Positions 1-34,476 of a stretch of DNA of 37,884 nt are shown one piece after another (the stretch's first letter is position 1; each line of letters begins with the position of its first letter). The notes below the pieces were generated by a model. The model searched no databases, was not told the origin of the DNA, and worked only from the letters and a program-made list of their open reading frames with translations. The position numbers and the translations under genes were made by a program. Source of the DNA: a virus (lineage: Duplodnaviria > Heunggongvirae > Uroviricota > Caudoviricetes). The stretch is taken from IMG/VR virus record IMGVR_UViG_2537562092_000002, positions 1 to 37,884 of that record; one strand, written 5' to 3'.

Positions 1-396
1 GAAATGGACGAACAGTGGGGCTACGTCGGTGCTAAATCACGTCAGCGCTGGCTGTTTTACGCGTATGACAGGATACGGAGGACGGTTGTGGCGCACGTCT
101 TCGGTGAACGCACTCTGGCCACACTGGAGTGTCTTCTGAGCCTGCTGTCGGCCTTTGAGGTCGTGGTATGGATGACGGATGGCTGGCCGCTGTATGAATC
201 CCGCCTGAAGGGAAAGCTGCACGTTATCAGCAAGCGTTACACTCAGCGCATTGAGCGACATAACCTGAATCTGAGACAACATCTGGCAAGGCTGGGACGG
301 AAGTCACTGTCGTTCTCAAAATCGGTGGAGCTGCATGACAAGGTCATCGGGCATTATCTGAACATAAAACACTATCAGTAAGTTGGAGTCATTACC
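1..396 (+). mobile_element. IS1 right-hand end (partial; window starts inside the element)
   Basis: Sequence ends in the characteristic IS1 terminus ...cactatcagtaagttggagtcattacc at about 370..396; contains the insB 3' portion. Confidence 0.85.
4..381 (+). CDS. insB: IS1 transposase InsB, C-terminal part (5' end lies outside window)
   Basis: Translation [22 protein letters not shown]...[12 protein letters not shown] matches the well-known IS1 InsB C-terminus. Confidence 0.9.
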
Positions 397-1059
397 CAAA
401 AACACACCTCAATATAATTGAATTTAAGAAAGCACCATTCAATCACTTACAGGAAGTAATCTGATCTTCACAAAAGTCAGCTATCGAATAGCCACAGGCA
501 ACACCGCTATTGATACCCCACACACCATAAGAAGATTATTCCATACAGAAAAAATTATATTTACCCATACTTATAAACTGTAACGGAGCTATGACGTACG
601 AACTAAAGACACTACACTCTAATAGAGTTCTGGTACCTAACCAGTGTTAAATACGAACCAGACATACATTCTATGGATTAATTTTCTCAATATTACGCTA
701 TGAGTGTAGTAACATAATTTACACCACCACACTGTAGTTAGTATATGGGGAGACATTACGATAAAAAGAGATAAGTTATACCACAGATACCACCACACAA
801 TACCATAACTCCCATTAATAATACTAATTAACCTAAATTATTTATTGAACACGAAAACAATGAAGGCCCCACCTCACCTCAGACTAAAGCCGACAATATC
901 CTGAGCAACAGGATATCCAATAGTAAATAGTGGTTACACCAGTTATATTTACTGACTGACCTGTACCAGAGTTTTCTAATACAACGCTGACATGGTAAAG
1001 GCATTAGTCTCCTCCGCAAGTAGCAGAGGAGACTATATGTTAGTCAACGATTAAGTTGT

Positions 1060-2511
1060 TCAGAGGTCAAAGTTAGGTGCGACACACAACGTTTTTCCCT
1101 CAATAACCGGTACAACTCTGTTTTGTTCATACAGTAAATCCAGTAACCAGTTGATTTTATCCTTTTTCCGGAAACGGTTCGGACCACGCTGTAAAATGTC
1201 ATTTTTTTTCATACAGAGGATCCCCTTCTCAATGCAATAGCTTTTTATCCAGTTGAAAAGTTCAAGCTCCTCTGGAATGAGTCGCACAGGTACGGTCAGG
1301 GCAGGGTTGTCAAAAGTTAACGGATTAGACAACCGCACATACTCATTACCGTACCATATTGCTAATTCTCTCGCCATTTCTGCAATGTAAGGGGAAATCT
1401 CCCCCTCTTCACCGCTCGAATGGTAGATAAGTCCTGCAAGTCTTGCCATATACTCTGCATTTTTAGCAGCATATTCCCGGCAATGTCTTAAAGGCCCAAA
1501 TCCCCCCAGCTTCGATTCCACATCGTTGTAATAATCCGTCCAGATTCTGGCAGCCTGAGGAGAAAAGTGAAGGCAACGTCGTTCACCACTCATCGCCAGA
1601 CTTTCATCAATAAGCTCATTGATCCTCTGTTCAAACAAATCCTGATACTGTGATGAATAATTATCTCCGGTTATTATCCTTGTCCCCTGCGTTGATGTTG
1701 GTTGACACATCAAAAACCTTGCATGATGTCCTGACGTTTTCACAAGTTCTTTTTTTCGCGTACAAAAACCTTTGTGGTAAACATCAGGCTGAATCATCGC
1801 CGACATCGTCAGTCTTGGCTCCTTCAAATTAATTCCGGGAGATGATTTCCTGTCGATGAAAAGAGAACCTCCATCCCACAAAGTGTTAATAATTCCCAGT
1901 TTACTCATGGCCCGGCTGTCAAAAATTACCCCCCCTTCACTGGATACAAGAGCAAAAGAACGATTGCTATCGGAGTAATATTTTAACATTCCCTCTATCG
2001 TTGTCTCATTAAAAATTGTTCGACGTATCTGCGGCGGAACAGGAGACTTATTCAGATGCGTTTCAAGCTCTGATTCTGTTGCCTTGTAATCTTTACCGGC
2101 ACGAATCTCTTTATGAAATTTTGATTCCAGCGCTTTTTGTTTTTGCTCCCATATTTCCTTTTCTGTGCTGTAATTCTCAACCAGTTTCGCGTATTCTTCC
2201 GCCAGGGCTTCATCCCTGAGATAAAATGCTTTCATAAACACTTTATCCACGGTCGTTTTCCTTTCACCAGAATCAGCCAGAATCAGAGAGTAAAGATTAA
2301 CAGGCCCACGTAAATTTCCAGGTCTGCACACGTCAATCTGATTCTGACAGGCAATTGAGATCGCTGTTAATGCGGATGTCGCCACCATAGCCAAAGGTGC
2401 CTGTGTATTTTTTTGAGTTTCAATTATTGCATTTCTCACCAGCGGTGGTAGTGCATATATCGGATAAGGATTTTCTGGTGCAAGTAAGCACATAAAAGCC
2501 TCTCTTTTCAT
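1060..2511 (-). CDS. DUF3987/YfjI-like protein of P4/CP4-type islands (putative primase-helicase-associated)
   Basis: 483-aa ORF immediately downstream of an AlpA-family gene, the typical AlpA-DUF3987 module of integrative islands. Family assignment is from memory, not a search. Confidence 0.45.
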   Translation of the reverse strand: MKREAFMCLLAPENPYPIYALPPLVRNAIIETQKNTQAPLAMVATSALTAISIACQNQIDVCRPGNLRGPVNLYSLILADSGERKTTVDKVFMKAFYLRDEALAEEYAKLVENYSTEKEIWEQKQKALESKFHKEIRAGKDYKATESELETHLNKSPVPPQIRRTIFNETTIEGMLKYYSDSNRSFALVSSEGGVIFDSRAMSKLGIINTLWDGGSLFIDRKSSPGINLKEPRLTMSAMIQPDVYHKGFCTRKKELVKTSGHHARFLMCQPTSTQGTRIITGDNYSSQYQDLFEQRINELIDESLAMSGERRCLHFSPQAARIWTDYYNDVESKLGGFGPLRHCREYAAKNAEYMARLAGLIYHSSGEEGEISPYIAEMARELAIWYGNEYVRLSNPLTFDNPALTVPVRLIPEELELFNWIKSYCIEKGILCMKKNDILQRGPNRFRKKDKINWLLDLLYEQNRVVPVIEGKTLCVAPNFDL

Positions 2512-2741
2512 TAATGGGTTAGTAAAGTAGCAGCAACTCCCGCTATAATAGCGAAATAGCTGCTGTTCAGACCTAATGTTCTGAGAAATACAGAATATCT
2601 GTAGATCTGATGTTTAATAAACCGATAAGGTTAATTCAGTTCATACTGTGTTATTTACCACGAAATATCATTCATGTTTCTCATTCTTAACACCTCCTAA
2701 AATTATTTCACTAACACCTTCCCCCCGATCTTTTTCCTTTC

Positions 2742-2969
2742 TCAGGAATCAGCCAGAACCATAGTGTAAATATTAACGGGCCCACGTAAATTTCCGGGGT
2801 TGCACACGTCAATCTGATTCTGACAGGCAATTGACATCGCTGTTAATAATGATGTTGTAGTCATAGCCAGAAATGCTTTTTCATTGTGTTGAGTTTCAAT
2901 TATTGCATTTCCAGTCATTGATGGTTGCGCATATACTGGATACGGAGTATCCGGTTTGATGTAAGACAT
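2742..2969 (-). pseudogene. Truncated paralog of the DUF3987-like gene (N-terminal ~75 codons only)
   Basis: Translation ...NAIIETQHNEKAFLAMTTTSLLTAMSIACQNQIDVCNPGNLRGPVNIYTMVLADS parallels residues ~20-85 of the 1060..2511 product; the frame stops after ADS while DNA similarity continues a few codons further. Confidence 0.6.
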
Positions 2970-3074
2970 AAATATTTCCTTTTTTCGTAATAACTTTCGG
3001 TTATAGCAGCTATTTCCGCTACAATAGCAACAATAGCTGCTATACAGACTGGATATACTGAAAATACAGACAGT

Positions 3075-3323
3075 TCATCTGGTCTGTATCCAGCAGAGAA
3101 GGTCACTTAACAACCATCCGCAAGATTTCTTTCCGATAGACTTACGTGGTGGAAATGTTCCCTCCCGTTCAAGTTTCCACGCTTGTGTACGAGAAATTGA
3201 CGTGATCTCATATCGTTCCTTTTCACGTACCAGTCTGTCGCATTCAATCCCATAAGCTTTCAAAATGACCAGACGCTGTTCATCTGTTAATGGAAGCCAC
3301 ATACTACCCTCCTGATATATCAA
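3075..3323 (-). CDS. alpA: AlpA-family phage/island transcriptional regulator (HTH)
   Basis: C-terminal ...ITSISRTQAWKLEREGTFPPRKSIGKKSCGWLLSDLLCWI resembles the AlpA/Vis DNA-binding fold; it precedes the DUF3987 fragment. Confidence 0.6.
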   Translation of the reverse strand: MIYQEGSMWLPLTDEQRLVILKAYGIECDRLVREKERYEITSISRTQAWKLEREGTFPPRKSIGKKSCGWLLSDLLCWIQTR

Positions 3324-3992
3324 TACTTTTTATTTCCGGCATGAGCATGAAATGACTAAGTTTCCCGGATAAACAATGAGTGAAAGTCACTATCATTCAT
3401 CCAGTCAACACCTTACAAATAAAATGTAATACTATGATTTTTATAGGTCAAAATACTGAATTGAAATGTTAAAATGGCTTTTAATAGAAAAAATAAAGAC
3501 ATATAGAACCAAATAAAAACAAGCCGCGACCAATAAAAACAAAAATTAATATTAAAAATCCATTATGACGATTTTTGTTGACTAAAATTAGGTTGGGATA
3601 TATAAATAAATCCATGTAAAATTCAAACAAAGCATGGAGGAGTCGCAGGAAGGTGAAATATTTCCATCTAATTTGTGATAATCATCACAAAAATAAGCTA
3701 CAACAAGCGGAGGAAAAGACAATCTGTTGCTGAACAGACAGAAGCAGGCTACGAATGATCGGAAAATGAAGCAAATACGCTTATACAGAAGACGCAGAGG
3801 TAACTGACGGAGACAATCACAATCAGGAGAAAATTATCGTAAATAATGTATAAAATCTCAGGATATAAACAAATGTACACAAGCTATCCACGTAATCAGC
3901 GGCTGGCTCAGGATTAACGTTTCATTTCAGTGGACAACATCGATTCTGTCTGACAGCGGACCAATATGTAGCAAGCAGAAACTTCTGACATC

Positions 3993-30918: not shown

Positions 30919-30944
30919 GCCCTCCAATGTGAGGGCGATTTTTT
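30919..30944 (+). terminator. Rho-independent terminator in the PL operon (tL-like)
   Basis: gccctccaatgtgagggc followed by gatttttt. Confidence 0.6.
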
Positions 30945-30964
30945 ATCTGTGAGGATATGAATAG

Positions 30965-31333
30965 ATGTCAAACATCAAAAAATACATCATTGATTACGAC
31001 TGGAAAGCATCAATAGAAATTGAAATCGACCATGACGTAATGACAGAGGAAAAACTTCACCAGATTAATAATTTCTGGTCAGACTCTGAATACCGACTCA
31101 ATAAACACGGCTCTGTATTAAATGCTGTATTAATCATGCTGGCGCAACATGCTCTGCTTATAGCAATTTCAAGCGACTTAAATGCATATGGTGTTGTGTG
31201 TGAGTTCGACTGGAATGATGGAAATGGTCAGGAAGGATGGCCTCCAATGGATGGTAGCGAAGGAATAAGAATTACCGATATCGATACATCAGGAATATTT
31301 GATTCAGATGATATGACTATCAAAGCCGCCTGA
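30965..31333 (+). CDS. Hypothetical acidic protein, 122 aa, at the lambda ea10 position
   Basis: ORF between N/sieB and cIII; acidic C-terminal half (DWNDGNGQEGWPPMDGSEG...DSDDMTI). Confidence 0.45.
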   Translation: MSNIKKYIIDYDWKASIEIEIDHDVMTEEKLHQINNFWSDSEYRLNKHGSVLNAVLIMLAQHALLIAISSDLNAYGVVCEFDWNDGNGQEGWPPMDGSEGIRITDIDTSGIFDSDDMTIKAA

Positions 31334-32058: not shown

Positions 32059-32844
32059 ATGAGTACAGCACTCGCAACGCTGGCAGGGAAGCTGGCTGAA
32101 CGTGTCGGCATGGATTCTGTCGACCCACAGGAACTGATCACCACTCTTCGCCAGACGGCATTTAAAGGCGATGCCAGCGATGCGCAGTTCATCGCATTGC
32201 TGATCGTCGCCAACCAGTACGGCCTTAATCCGTGGACGAAAGAAATTTACGCCTTTCCTGACAAGCAGAACGGCATCGTTCCGGTGGTGGGCGTTGATGG
32301 CTGGTCCCGCATCATCAATGAAAACCAGCAGTTTGATGGCATGGACTTTGAGCAGGACAATGAATCCTGTACATGCCGGATTTACCGCAAGGACCGCAAT
32401 CATCCGATCTGCGTTACCGAATGGATGGATGAATGCCGCCGCGAACCATTCAAAACCCGCGAAGGCAGAGAAATCACGGGGCCGTGGCAGTCGCATCCCA
32501 AACGGATGTTACGGCATAAAGCCATGATTCAGTGTGCCCGTCTCGCCTTCGGATTTGCTGGTATCTATGACAAGGATGAAGCCGAGCGCATTGTCGAAAA
32601 TACCGCATACACTGCAGAACGTCAGCCGGAACGCGACATCACTCCGGTTAACGATGAAACCATGCAGGAGATTAACACTCTGCTGATCGCCCTGGATAAA
32701 ACATGGGATGACGACTTATTGCCGCTCTGTTCCCAGATATTTCGCCGCGACATTCGAGCATCGTCAGAACTGACACAAGCCGAAGCAGTGAAAGCTCTTG
32801 GATTCCTGAAACAGAAAGCCACTGAGCAGAAGGTGGCAGCATGA
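32059..32844 (+). CDS. bet: Bet (Red-beta single-strand annealing recombinase)
   Basis: [66 protein letters not shown]... matches lambda Bet. Confidence 0.9.
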
Positions 32845-33521
32845 CACCGGACATTATCCTGCAGCGTACCGGGATCGACGTGAGAGCTGTCGAACAGGGG
32901 GATGATGCATGGCACAAATTACGGCTCGGCGTCATCACAGCTTCAGAAGTTCATAACGTAATAGCAAAACCCCGCTCCGGAAAAAAGTGGCCTGACATGA
33001 AAATGTCCTACTTCCACACCCTGCTTGCTGAGGTTTGCACCGGTGTGGCTCCGGAAGTTAACGCTAAAGCGCTGGCCTGGGGAAAACAGTACGAGAACGA
33101 CGCCAGAGCCCTGTTTGAGTTCACTTCCGGCGTGAATGTTACTGAATCACCGATCATCTATCGCGACGAAAGTATGCGTACCGCCTGCTCTCCCGATGGT
33201 TTATGCAGTGACGGCAACGGCCTTGAACTGAAATGCCCGTTTACCTCCCGGGATTTCATGAAGTTCCGGCTCGGTGGTTTCGAGGCCATAAAATCGGCTT
33301 ACATGGCCCAGGTGCAGTACAGCATGTGGGTGGCACGAAAAGATGCCTGGTACTTTGCCAACTATGACCCGCGTATGAAGCGTGAAGGCCTGCATTATGT
33401 CGTGGTTGAGCGGGATGAAAAGTACATGGCGAGTTTTGACGAGATGGTGCCGGAGTTCATCGAAAAAATGGACGAGGCACTGGCTGAAATTGGTTTTGTA
33501 TTTGGGGAGCAATGGCGATGA
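32841..33521 (+). CDS. exo: Exo (Red-alpha 5'-3' exonuclease)
   Basis: [43 protein letters not shown]... matches lambda Exo; ATGA overlap with bet. Confidence 0.9.
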
Positions 33522-33700
33522 AGCATCCTCACGATAATATCCGGGTAGGCGCGATCACTTTCGTCTACTCCGTTACAAAGCGAGGCTGGGTATTTCCCGG
33601 CCTTTCTGTTACCCAAAATCCCCTGAAAGCACAGCGGCTGGCTGAGGAGATAAATAATAAACGGGGAGCTGTATGCACAAAGCATCTCCTGTTGAGTTAA
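33512..33700 (+). CDS. Lambda orf60a-like hypothetical protein
   Basis: 62-aa ORF immediately after exo in conserved gene order. Confidence 0.45.
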
Positions 33701-33864
33701 GAACGAGCATTGAGATGGCACATAGCCTCGCTCAAATTGGAGTCAGGTTTGTGCCAATACCAGTAGAAACAGACGAAGAATTTCATACGTTAGCCGCATC
33801 CCTTTCACAAAAGCTGGAAATGATGGTGGCGAAAGCAGAAGCAGATGAGAGAGACCAGGTATGA
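33673..33864 (+). CDS. Lambda orf63-like protein
   Basis: [46 protein letters not shown]... resembles lambda Orf63. Confidence 0.6.
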   Translation: MHKASPVELRTSIEMAHSLAQIGVRFVPIPVETDEEFHTLAASLSQKLEMMVAKAEADERDQV

Positions 33865-33874
33865 CAACCACTGA

Positions 33875-34156
33875 ATGCATTTTTCTGGCAGCGGGCTTCA
33901 TATTCTGTGTGCTTATGCTTGCCGACATGGGGCTTGTTCAGTGACACCTCAGCAGGAAAACGCCCTTCGCAGCATTGCCCGTCAGGCTAATTCTGAAATC
34001 AAAAAAGCCAGACAGCAGTTTCCGGATAAAAACGTCGATGACATTTGCCGTAGCGTACTGAAGAAGCACCGCGAAACGGTAACGCTGATGGGATTCACAC
34101 CGACTCATTTAAGTCTGGCAATCGGTATGTTAAACGGCGCCTTTAAGGAACGGTGA
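33875..34156 (+). CDS. Lambda orf61-like protein (likely initiating at GTG ~33942: VTPQQENALRSIARQ...)
   Basis: Conserved position after orf63; C-terminal 71 aa resemble lambda Orf61. Confidence 0.5.
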   Translation: MHFSGSGLHILCAYACRHGACSVTPQQENALRSIARQANSEIKKARQQFPDKNVDDICRSVLKKHRETVTLMGFTPTHLSLAIGMLNGAFKER

Positions 34157-34254
34157 ACATGAAAAGCAAAATCCTCAGGGAGCTACAGGCTCCTTTTTTA
34201 TTGTTCGCATTCACCCTCAAGCGTATTAACCAACAATTCAGGGATTAATGGAAG

Positions 34255-34476
34255 ATGGCAGACATCATTGATTCAGCATCAGAAATAGAAGAATTACAGC
34301 GCAACACAGCAATAAAAATGCGCCGCCTGAACCACCTGGCTGTATCTGCCACTCATTGTTGTGAGTGTGGTGATCCGATAGATGAACGAAGACGCCTAGC
34401 CGTTCAGGGTTGTCGAACTTGCGCCAGTTGCCAGCAAGATCTGGAGCTTATCCGCAAACAAAGGGGGATTAAGTGA
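34255..34476 (+). CDS. TraR/DksA-family C4 zinc-finger protein (lambda Orf73-like)
   Basis: CxxC...CxxC zinc ribbon (CCECGDPIDERRRLAVQGCRTCASCQ). Confidence 0.65.
   Translation: MADIIDSASEIEELQRNTAIKMRRLNHLAVSATHCCECGDPIDERRRLAVQGCRTCASCQQDLELIRKQRGIK

Follow-up and report, generated by a model that had tools for sequence, protein, structure and literature searches.

A conserved 27-codon reading frame between orf63 and orf61 of lambda-like phages probably encodes a small, translationally coupled hydrophobic peptide

The small single-pass inner-membrane proteins of Escherichia coli, including YohP, AcrZ and MgtS, are shorter than 50 residues, possess one dominant hydrophobic stretch and are missed by annotation because of their size. 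Similar size and hydrophobicity characterize the type I toxin peptides TisB, DinQ (27 residues), ShoB and Ibs. No temperate phage has been studied more thoroughly than bacteriophage lambda, whose exo-xis block is being actively investigated because it affects the induction of Shiga toxin (Stx) prophages. Here we describe a 27-codon open reading frame (ORF), hereafter the micro-ORF, that lies between orf63 and orf61 in a 37,884-nucleotide (nt) stretch of a tailed-phage record (IMG/VR IMGVR_UViG_2537562092_000002), hereafter the window. On its plus strand, the window carries the early leftward (pL) operon of a lambda-like prophage. A sequence-only reading had singled out the micro-ORF as an unannotated hydrophobic frame that might encode a small membrane peptide or merely serve as a translational coupling element. 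Our analysis supports that proposal and suggests that its two halves combine, the micro-ORF encoding a selected hydrophobic peptide placed as a ribosome relay.

The 27 codons are followed by a TGA at 33942–33944. The start of the micro-ORF is interlocked with the stop of orf63 as ATGA at 33861–33864 (context GTATGA) and its stop with the start of orf61 as GTGA at 33941–33944. Both 4-nt overlaps are themselves conserved among relatives. The frame and its overlap with the orf63 stop are therefore as first described; the described end at a presumed orf61 GTG holds as an overlap but not as a coordinate, the GTG occupying 33941–33943 rather than 33944, a correction of three bases. In the orf63 context, the Shine-Dalgarno (SD)-like stretch preceding the micro-ORF was predicted to form an anti-SD duplex of −5.6 kcal/mol at a spacing of 6 nt (background mean −2.8). 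The corresponding value for the orf61 start at 33941 was −4.7 kcal/mol at 7 nt. The length of the micro-ORF is ordinary, as 45 ORFs of at least 20 residues overlap the surrounding 2.2-kb stretch. The case for a gene therefore rests on conservation, selection, hydrophobicity and anatomy.

This start anatomy recurs behind a second upstream gene. In 31 copies, a gene for a Dam-like methyltransferase takes the place of orf63, and homology to the window begins exactly at the micro-ORF ATG. The methyltransferase stop codon overlaps this ATG, again as ATGA, with a GGAGG SD 4 nt upstream (anti-SD duplex −10.3 kcal/mol, spacing 3 nt). The initiation signals expected of a small coding gene, an ATGA overlap with the upstream stop plus an SD, are thus present in both upstream contexts. 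Overall, three modules were found 5′ of orf61: orf63 with the micro-ORF; the Dam-like methyltransferase gene with the micro-ORF (PhiR30_1, 647–1284); and, in SfI (423–1398), a queuine-tRNA-ribosyltransferase-like gene directly before orf61, the 5′ end of which is rebuilt, the micro-ORF being absent.

Related copies were gathered using three exact anchors located in orf61, in the 3′ end of orf63 and inside the micro-ORF, respectively, yielding 290 instances. All 27 codons were intact in 285 of these, lambda included, and the peptide was identical in 255. Among the remaining copies, three end one codon early (CAA to TAA, with the ATG overlap kept) and two are altered at the 3′ end. Conservation of the frame across lambda-like phages had been proposed as a check, and the lack of conservation named as the refuting result was not observed. 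In lambda, the micro-ORF lies at complement(30925..31008) and its 27-residue product is identical. Each of the 240 sequences anchored in the 3′ end of orf63 continued into the micro-ORF, and downstream of every micro-ORF except one rearranged copy lay an orf61 that was intact, frameshifted or interrupted by an insertion sequence (IS). The micro-ORF was intact where orf61 was frameshifted (17 copies) or IS-split. The surrounding 231 nt, comprising the orf63 3′ end, the micro-ORF and the orf61 5′ end, occurred in 3213 of 5426 complete E. coli genomes (∼59%) and matched a prophage of E. coli CFSAN061771 with 100% identity. Further related copies were present in 180 phage records, including lambda, 434, 933W, VT2-Sakai and Phi24B, and in 38 plasmid records.

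Selection was evaluated from the distinct variants over codons 2–26 among the 290 copies (n = 26). In the micro-ORF frame, 14 of these were synonymous and 12 non-synonymous, as compared to an expected synonymous fraction of 0.24 (binomial P = 0.001; crude ratio of non-synonymous to synonymous change, dN/dS, 0.27). Frame B, which is that of an annotated 93-residue ORF described below, had 7 synonymous and 19 non-synonymous variants, and frame C had 5 and 21, respectively. Controlling for transitions and transversions (17 and 9, respectively), the 14 synonymous variants of the micro-ORF frame compared to 7.06 expected (P = 0.0011), with P values of 0.59 and 0.91 for frames B and C. The six variants found in at least eight sequences were all synonymous in the micro-ORF frame, and none was so in frames B or C. 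Third codon positions of the micro-ORF held 261 of 290 variant-allele occurrences (90%). On a common set of 81 sequences, crude dN/dS values were 0.53 for orf63, 0.21 for the micro-ORF and 0.16 for a 71-residue orf61, as compared to 1.06 for frame B over the micro-ORF. Across both sets, the micro-ORF values (0.21–0.27) were near that of orf61, and those of the other two sense frames were ∼0.7–1.1. These data indicate that the micro-ORF peptide is under frame-specific purifying selection and that, judged from the same variants, the competing 93-residue frame evolves neutrally over the micro-ORF.

The peptide was also exceptional in its hydrophobicity. Among the 202 ATG-initiated ORFs of 20–45 residues in the window, it ranked first by grand average of hydropathy, by best 15-residue window and by Hessa insertion energy, bearing out the hydrophobic character first attributed to it. 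The 16-residue core, CIFLAAGFIFCVLMLA, had a Hessa energy of −3.4 kcal/mol. The charged residues of the peptide, E5 and D22, are all acidic and bracket this core. The small, hydrophobic peptide is probably membrane-embedded. A lipoprotein signal peptide was considered and rejected, as no lipobox precedes C6 or C16.

The annotation of the downstream gene is conflicting. In BP-4795, 933W, 06-3462, phi345 and other records, a 93-residue ORF is annotated from the ATG at 33875, often as ‘cell division protein ZapA’. By contrast, the gene begins at 33941 in the RefSeq annotation of the identical E. coli prophage, made with the Prokaryotic Genome Annotation Pipeline (PGAP), and in the curated records of 434 and PhiR30_1, giving 71 residues and leaving 33865–33940 empty. 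Among relatives, the start codon at this position is ATG in ∼240 copies (∼84%) and GTG in 46; this A/G polymorphism is silent in the micro-ORF (CAA/CAG) and retains a start codon. The 93-residue start had the worst anti-SD duplex of the three candidate starts (−3.8 kcal/mol, spacing 13 nt), and the stop codon just 5′ of its ATG is polymorphic (TGA/GGA/AGA). In SfI-type phages, a different upstream gene with its own stop is followed by a GAGG SD and then MTIEHNNALRS..., which aligns with MTPQQENALRS... from 33941. These Orf61 proteins have neither a micro-ORF nor an N-terminal extension, and homologues in prophage remnants likewise begin at the M/V23 position. In an AlphaFold2 model of the 93-residue ORF, the predicted local distance difference test (pLDDT) score was 44–52 for residues 1–20 and 75–90 thereafter, and the first confident helix comprised residues 25–48. 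The 22-residue N-terminus of the 93-residue ORF of Stx phages is probably spurious. The revised start bears on the published structure models, which disagreed over Orf61 residues 1–23; published modelling omitted these residues and remarked of lambda Orf61 that it ‘appears truncated’ (PMC8614690). For Orf61, a published model points instead of ZapA to a homeodomain-like fold of three helices. The RefSeq product name ‘cell division protein ZapA’ is based on a similarity below threshold, the Pfam ZapA model matching Orf61 with E = 0.017 and 15.9 bits against a cut-off of 23.8, and no NCBIfam model matched Orf61.

The lambda reference annotation is different again: its orf61 comprises 61 residues and begins within orf63. 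At the position equivalent to 33872, lambda carries G instead of T, a change that is silent in the micro-ORF (ACT to ACG) and removes a frame-B stop, so that the longest ORF extends upstream into orf63. In addition, lambda (NC_001416, about 30865), HK630 and other laboratory lambdas have A7 in place of the A6 run in orf61, which frameshifts Orf61 after 29 codons and truncates it to 29 residues. A7 occurred in 17 of 134 sampled sequences, and PGAP flags one such copy as ‘frameshifted’. By its sequence, the 61-residue lambda reference orf61 is a composite of an out-of-frame read of the micro-ORF, 29 real Orf61 codons and a frameshifted tail. In one E. coli chromosome, an IS3-family element lies in orf61 just past the A-run (retrieved stretch 1–1750), and the upstream micro-ORF is intact.

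Neither the lambda reference nor current RefSeq annotation included the micro-ORF, and none of the curated phage records that we inspected did so. For these records, the description of the micro-ORF as unannotated was accurate; it does not extend to all databases, as the exact peptide has been deposited under the label ‘hypothetical protein’ (27 residues) in a few GenBank records of E. coli (for example, ETI79567.1 and KJW28683.1) and in UniRef (A0A0A2SGE8_ECOLX). These entries represent the same ORF as the micro-ORF but stem from automatic annotation of a small number of draft E. coli genomes, with no name, family or study. In a protein collection, the exact peptide was present on 981 contigs, and the variants E5K, A11G, C6S and T3I have also been deposited. 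The micro-ORF is therefore not new to databases; it is probably an overlooked but ordinary kind of gene, small, hydrophobic and translationally coupled. The peptide belonged to no family in Pfam, PHROG, NCBIfam or PADLOC, and the only weak PHROG match was of residues 1–21 to the N-terminus of a 60-residue ‘membrane protein’ (E = 0.68). The peptide string did not occur in a collection of 8 million papers, nor was a paper on the micro-ORF found, in a search that did not extend to the lambda ribosome-profiling paper (Liu et al. 2013). The supplements of the RIBOseq small-gene study of O157:H7 Sakai contained no match to the micro-ORF. Two unrelated 428-residue glycosyltransferase-like proteins (P0006 and P0007) shared the 90% cluster of the peptide, an apparent clustering artefact.

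Searches for more distant relatives yielded no additional diversity. A tblastn search of 50,697 phage records recovered the same clade and one chance match, and no longer homologue. Divergent Orf61 homologues, when traced to their contigs, were in error-ridden assemblies, next to an IS insertion or in a truncated prophage-host fusion, and represented no independent older lineage. Species-representative genomes searched for distant orf63 relatives returned only lambda-identical DNA. This DNA was present in assemblies labelled Bradyrhizobium, Shewanella, Paenibacillus, Kitasatospora, Segatella and others, and several of the matches were on low-coverage contigs of ∼48.4–48.5 kb, the size of the lambda genome. 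Lambda-identical DNA in these unrelated public assemblies looks like contamination with lambda control DNA. The record ‘Campylobacter phage CJLB-4’ (48,361 bp) also contains the lambda region.

Overall, these data favour, with some confidence, the interpretation that the 84-nt stretch is a genuine coding gene of the pL operon, specifying a coupled hydrophobic membrane peptide and also relaying ribosomes to orf61. Ribosomes that end orf63 at the TGA at 33862–33864 would restart on the overlapping ATG, aided by the modest purine-rich SD. The resulting 27-residue peptide would most likely embed in the inner membrane via its strongly hydrophobic core. Termination at the micro-ORF TGA, on the start codon of the 71-residue orf61 (GTG here, ATG elsewhere), would hand ribosomes over to orf61. 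The peptide would then be likely to bind or perturb a component of the host inner membrane during early lytic development; by analogy with other small hydrophobic proteins of bacteria and phages, such a component is probably its partner early after induction. Translation, coupling, membrane insertion and peptide activity are what we infer from these features. The two roles are favoured together because a relay alone leaves the conserved residues and the hydrophobicity unexplained, and a peptide alone leaves the strict linkage to orf61 unexplained.

Several observations weigh against this interpretation. All copies form one shallow clade of at least ∼90% nucleotide identity, essentially confined to E. 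coli and Shigella. Only 26 distinct variants underlie the selection test, and the 12 non-synonymous ones include G12V, D22G and I14K. Owing to E5 and D22, windows of 19–21 residues have predicted insertion energies near 0, which leaves a classical transmembrane helix uncertain. The peptide is devoid of Lys, Arg and His, both next to its hydrophobic core and elsewhere; the positive flank that would fix a topology is thus absent, and only the rare E5K variant is known. A micro-ORF without orf61 was never seen, and the SfI-type orf61 has its own SD without a micro-ORF, which makes the micro-ORF dispensable for orf61. The whole region is non-essential in lambda. Finally, a review of Liu et al. 2013 (PMC8614690) lists only ORFs of 7 and 31 residues as new in this region. 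With respect to the last point, we infer that footprints on the lambda micro-ORF would have been assigned to ‘orf61’, as the micro-ORF lies entirely within the annotated orf61.

The linkage to orf61 is the natural starting point for an alternative in which the micro-ORF is purely a relay or upstream ORF, translated only to bring ribosomes from orf63 or the methyltransferase gene to a weakly initiating orf61, the peptide itself being functionless. The 4-nt overlaps at both ends and the constant presence of a downstream orf61 are as this proposal predicts, as is the weak SD of orf61 behind the micro-ORF when set against the GAGG of SfI-type phages. However, a relay needs just an open frame, whereas the residues of the micro-ORF are constrained, as judged from its low dN/dS, the number of identical copies and the uniformly synonymous common variants. 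A relay also has no need of extreme hydrophobicity, and the micro-ORF stays intact beside orf61 copies that are frameshifted or IS-split. We therefore consider a pure relay unlikely. The same synonymous bias, which points to ongoing purifying selection, bears on the proposal that the micro-ORF is a decaying remnant, the N-terminal signal or transmembrane fragment of a longer membrane-protein gene that was cut by recombination beside orf61 and has persisted by hitch-hiking in a young, fast-spreading module. The narrow distribution, the shallow divergence and the lack of a family are consistent with such an origin, as is the sole weak match to the N-terminus of a PHROG membrane protein. Nevertheless, exact overlaps with both neighbours in two upstream contexts resemble an integrated gene rather than debris, and the longer homologue was not recovered from the phage records. 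A remnant is accordingly improbable.

Two further alternatives place the coding information in another frame. In one, the micro-ORF is a chance, untranslated ORF lying out of frame within a real 93-residue Orf61 (‘cell division protein ZapA’, PHROG 303) that starts at 33875. This is the public annotation of the phage records listed above, PHROG 303 spans the full 93 residues, and the literature takes Orf61 of Phi24B as 93 residues. Yet frame B is unconstrained over 33864–33938: beyond the ratio given above, none of its 12 non-singleton variants in the 81-sequence set was synonymous. Together with the polymorphic upstream stop, the poor SD, homologues beginning at M/V23, the low pLDDT of residues 1–20, the exclusion of residues 1–23 from published modelling and the 71-residue start used by PGAP and two curated records, this renders the 93-residue reading very improbable. 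In the other, the opposite strand codes, via a 61-residue antisense ORF at 33743–33928. Its frame shares wobble positions with the micro-ORF and had 10 synonymous and 16 non-synonymous variants (P = 0.023), with five of the six common variants synonymous. This signal is weaker than that of the sense frame and is an expected by-product of the shared wobble positions. Moreover, such an ORF would share 120 nt with orf63 in a non-matching phase, the minus strand has no promoter-like site, and the overlaps and the mosaic boundary fit a sense ORF only. An antisense gene is thus scarcely credible. The protein encoded by orf63 has reportedly had its structure solved by nuclear magnetic resonance.

Elements of other kinds were also rejected. 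No promoter-like site was found on either strand between 33400 and 34500, the micro-ORF region had no Rfam match at E ≤ 1, and a 126-nt region folded worse than all 200 of its shuffles (z = +2.28). An RNA element or small RNA was dismissed on these three grounds. An attenuation- or arrest-type leader peptide was rejected as no alternative RNA structure or hairpin sequestering the ribosome-binding site was found, and a fusion with Orf61 by −1 frameshifting was rejected as the micro-ORF contains no X XXY YYZ slippery heptamer. The toxin of a type I toxin-antitoxin system was set aside based on the lack of a promoter-like site and Rfam match and because overlaps embed the ORF in the operon.

The gene order of the pL operon is bet, exo, orf60a, orf63, the micro-ORF, the orf61-like gene, a second, 31-codon ORF and orf73 (Table 1). 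The 31-codon ORF contains a terminator-like hairpin at 34177–34195 and equals in length the 31-residue ‘orf2313’ of lambda. It is annotated as 29 residues in some phage records only and is absent from the RefSeq annotation of the prophage.

Table 1. Coordinates of the micro-ORF and of neighbouring features in the window
Feature	Position	Strand	Description and evidence
bet	32059-32844	+	
exo	32841-33521	+	
orf60a (DUF1317)		+	Between exo and orf63
orf63 (DUF1382)	33673..33864	+	Pfam DUF1382 E = 3e-31; same annotation in all public records inspected; TGA stop 33862-33864
Shine-Dalgarno-like stretch	33847..33859	+	Purine-rich GAGAGAGA then AGG, within the orf63 3′ end, 5′ of the micro-ORF start; anti-SD duplex
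Micro-ORF	33861..33944	+	ATG start at 33861; 27 codons + stop; peptide MTTTECIFLAAGFIFCVLMLADMGLVQ, hydrophobic core C6-A21; frame, conservation, selection, hydrophobicity, mosaic junction
5′ extension of annotated 93-residue ‘Orf61/ZapA’	33875..33940	+	Probably non-coding; read in the −1 frame with respect to the micro-ORF
True orf61 coding sequence	33941..34156	+	71 residues; GTG start here; start overlaps micro-ORF stop (GTGA/ATGA); dN/dS, SD
A6 run	34001..34006	+	Inside orf61; A7 in lambda and close kin
Second micro-ORF	34153-34248	+	31 codons from GTG, MNMKSKILRELQAPFLLFAFTLKRINQQFRD; begins on the orf61 stop (GTGA)
orf73	34255-34476	+	TraR/DksA type; after the 31-codon ORF

The coding gene favoured here has consequences for the genetics of lambda and of Stx phages. 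The published lambda ‘orf61’ frameshift allele deletes the C in CTTCATATTCTGTGTG[C]TTATGCTTGCCGACAT (PMC4195576, Table 1), which falls in codon 18 of the micro-ORF (window 33907–33939). The Δorf61 phages replace the whole annotated ORF (PMC6213356), so the micro-ORF is lost too. As both the frameshift allele and the deletions hit the micro-ORF, the pro-lytic ‘orf61’ phenotypes (PMC4195576, PMC6213356) are not assignable to Orf61 alone; they may reflect the peptide or a loss of coupling. When overexpressed, Orf61 was insoluble (PMC6213356), as might be expected of a mis-defined ORF. For lambda, with its truncated Orf61, the peptide is to be taken seriously as a candidate behind the phenotypes. 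The stronger proposal, that the 27-residue peptide and not Orf61 causes the published effects on prophage induction and the lysis-lysogeny choice, is tentative and, in our estimation, rather doubtful. Were it true, the peptide would be an early membrane micro-protein, hitherto unrecognised, that modulates the development of lambda and Shiga-toxin phages. More generally, a conserved and selected gene would have been overlooked in the lambda exo-xis block, and the ‘orf61’ of the literature would be partly an artefact. The interest of the micro-ORF exceeds the routine in that it sits in lambda and Stx phages and revises an experimentally studied gene. As the region is present in more than half of the complete E. 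coli genomes, a correct annotation would spread widely.

With respect to described genes, lambda orf61 (NP_040613.1, PHROG 26061) and the 93-residue Orf61 of Phi24B and 933W (PHROG 303) occupy the same DNA as the micro-ORF. They differ from it in using the −1 frame and specifying another product, the overlapping part of which lacks protein-level selection, and the lambda version is cut by an additional A. The lambda 31-residue ‘orf2313’, translated according to the ribosome-profiling study as cited in PMC8614690, resembles the micro-ORF in belonging to the same operon, being rarely annotated and starting on the stop codon of a neighbour. It has a different sequence, is only partly hydrophobic and contains the terminator-like hairpin; moreover, PMC8614690 lists it as new and does not have the 27-residue micro-ORF among its new ORFs. 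As compared to the type I toxin peptides, which it resembles in size and hydrophobicity, the micro-ORF has no antisense RNA gene, promoter of its own, Rfam match or basic residues, and is not a stand-alone locus. The micro-ORF peptide shares with the small single-pass inner-membrane proteins of E. coli their short length, their single dominant hydrophobic stretch and their omission from annotation, but it lacks positive flanks, is phage-borne and is tied into an operon by 4-nt overlaps. Although its charge pattern is atypical, the micro-ORF fits the broad kind of small hydrophobic phage or host membrane proteins.

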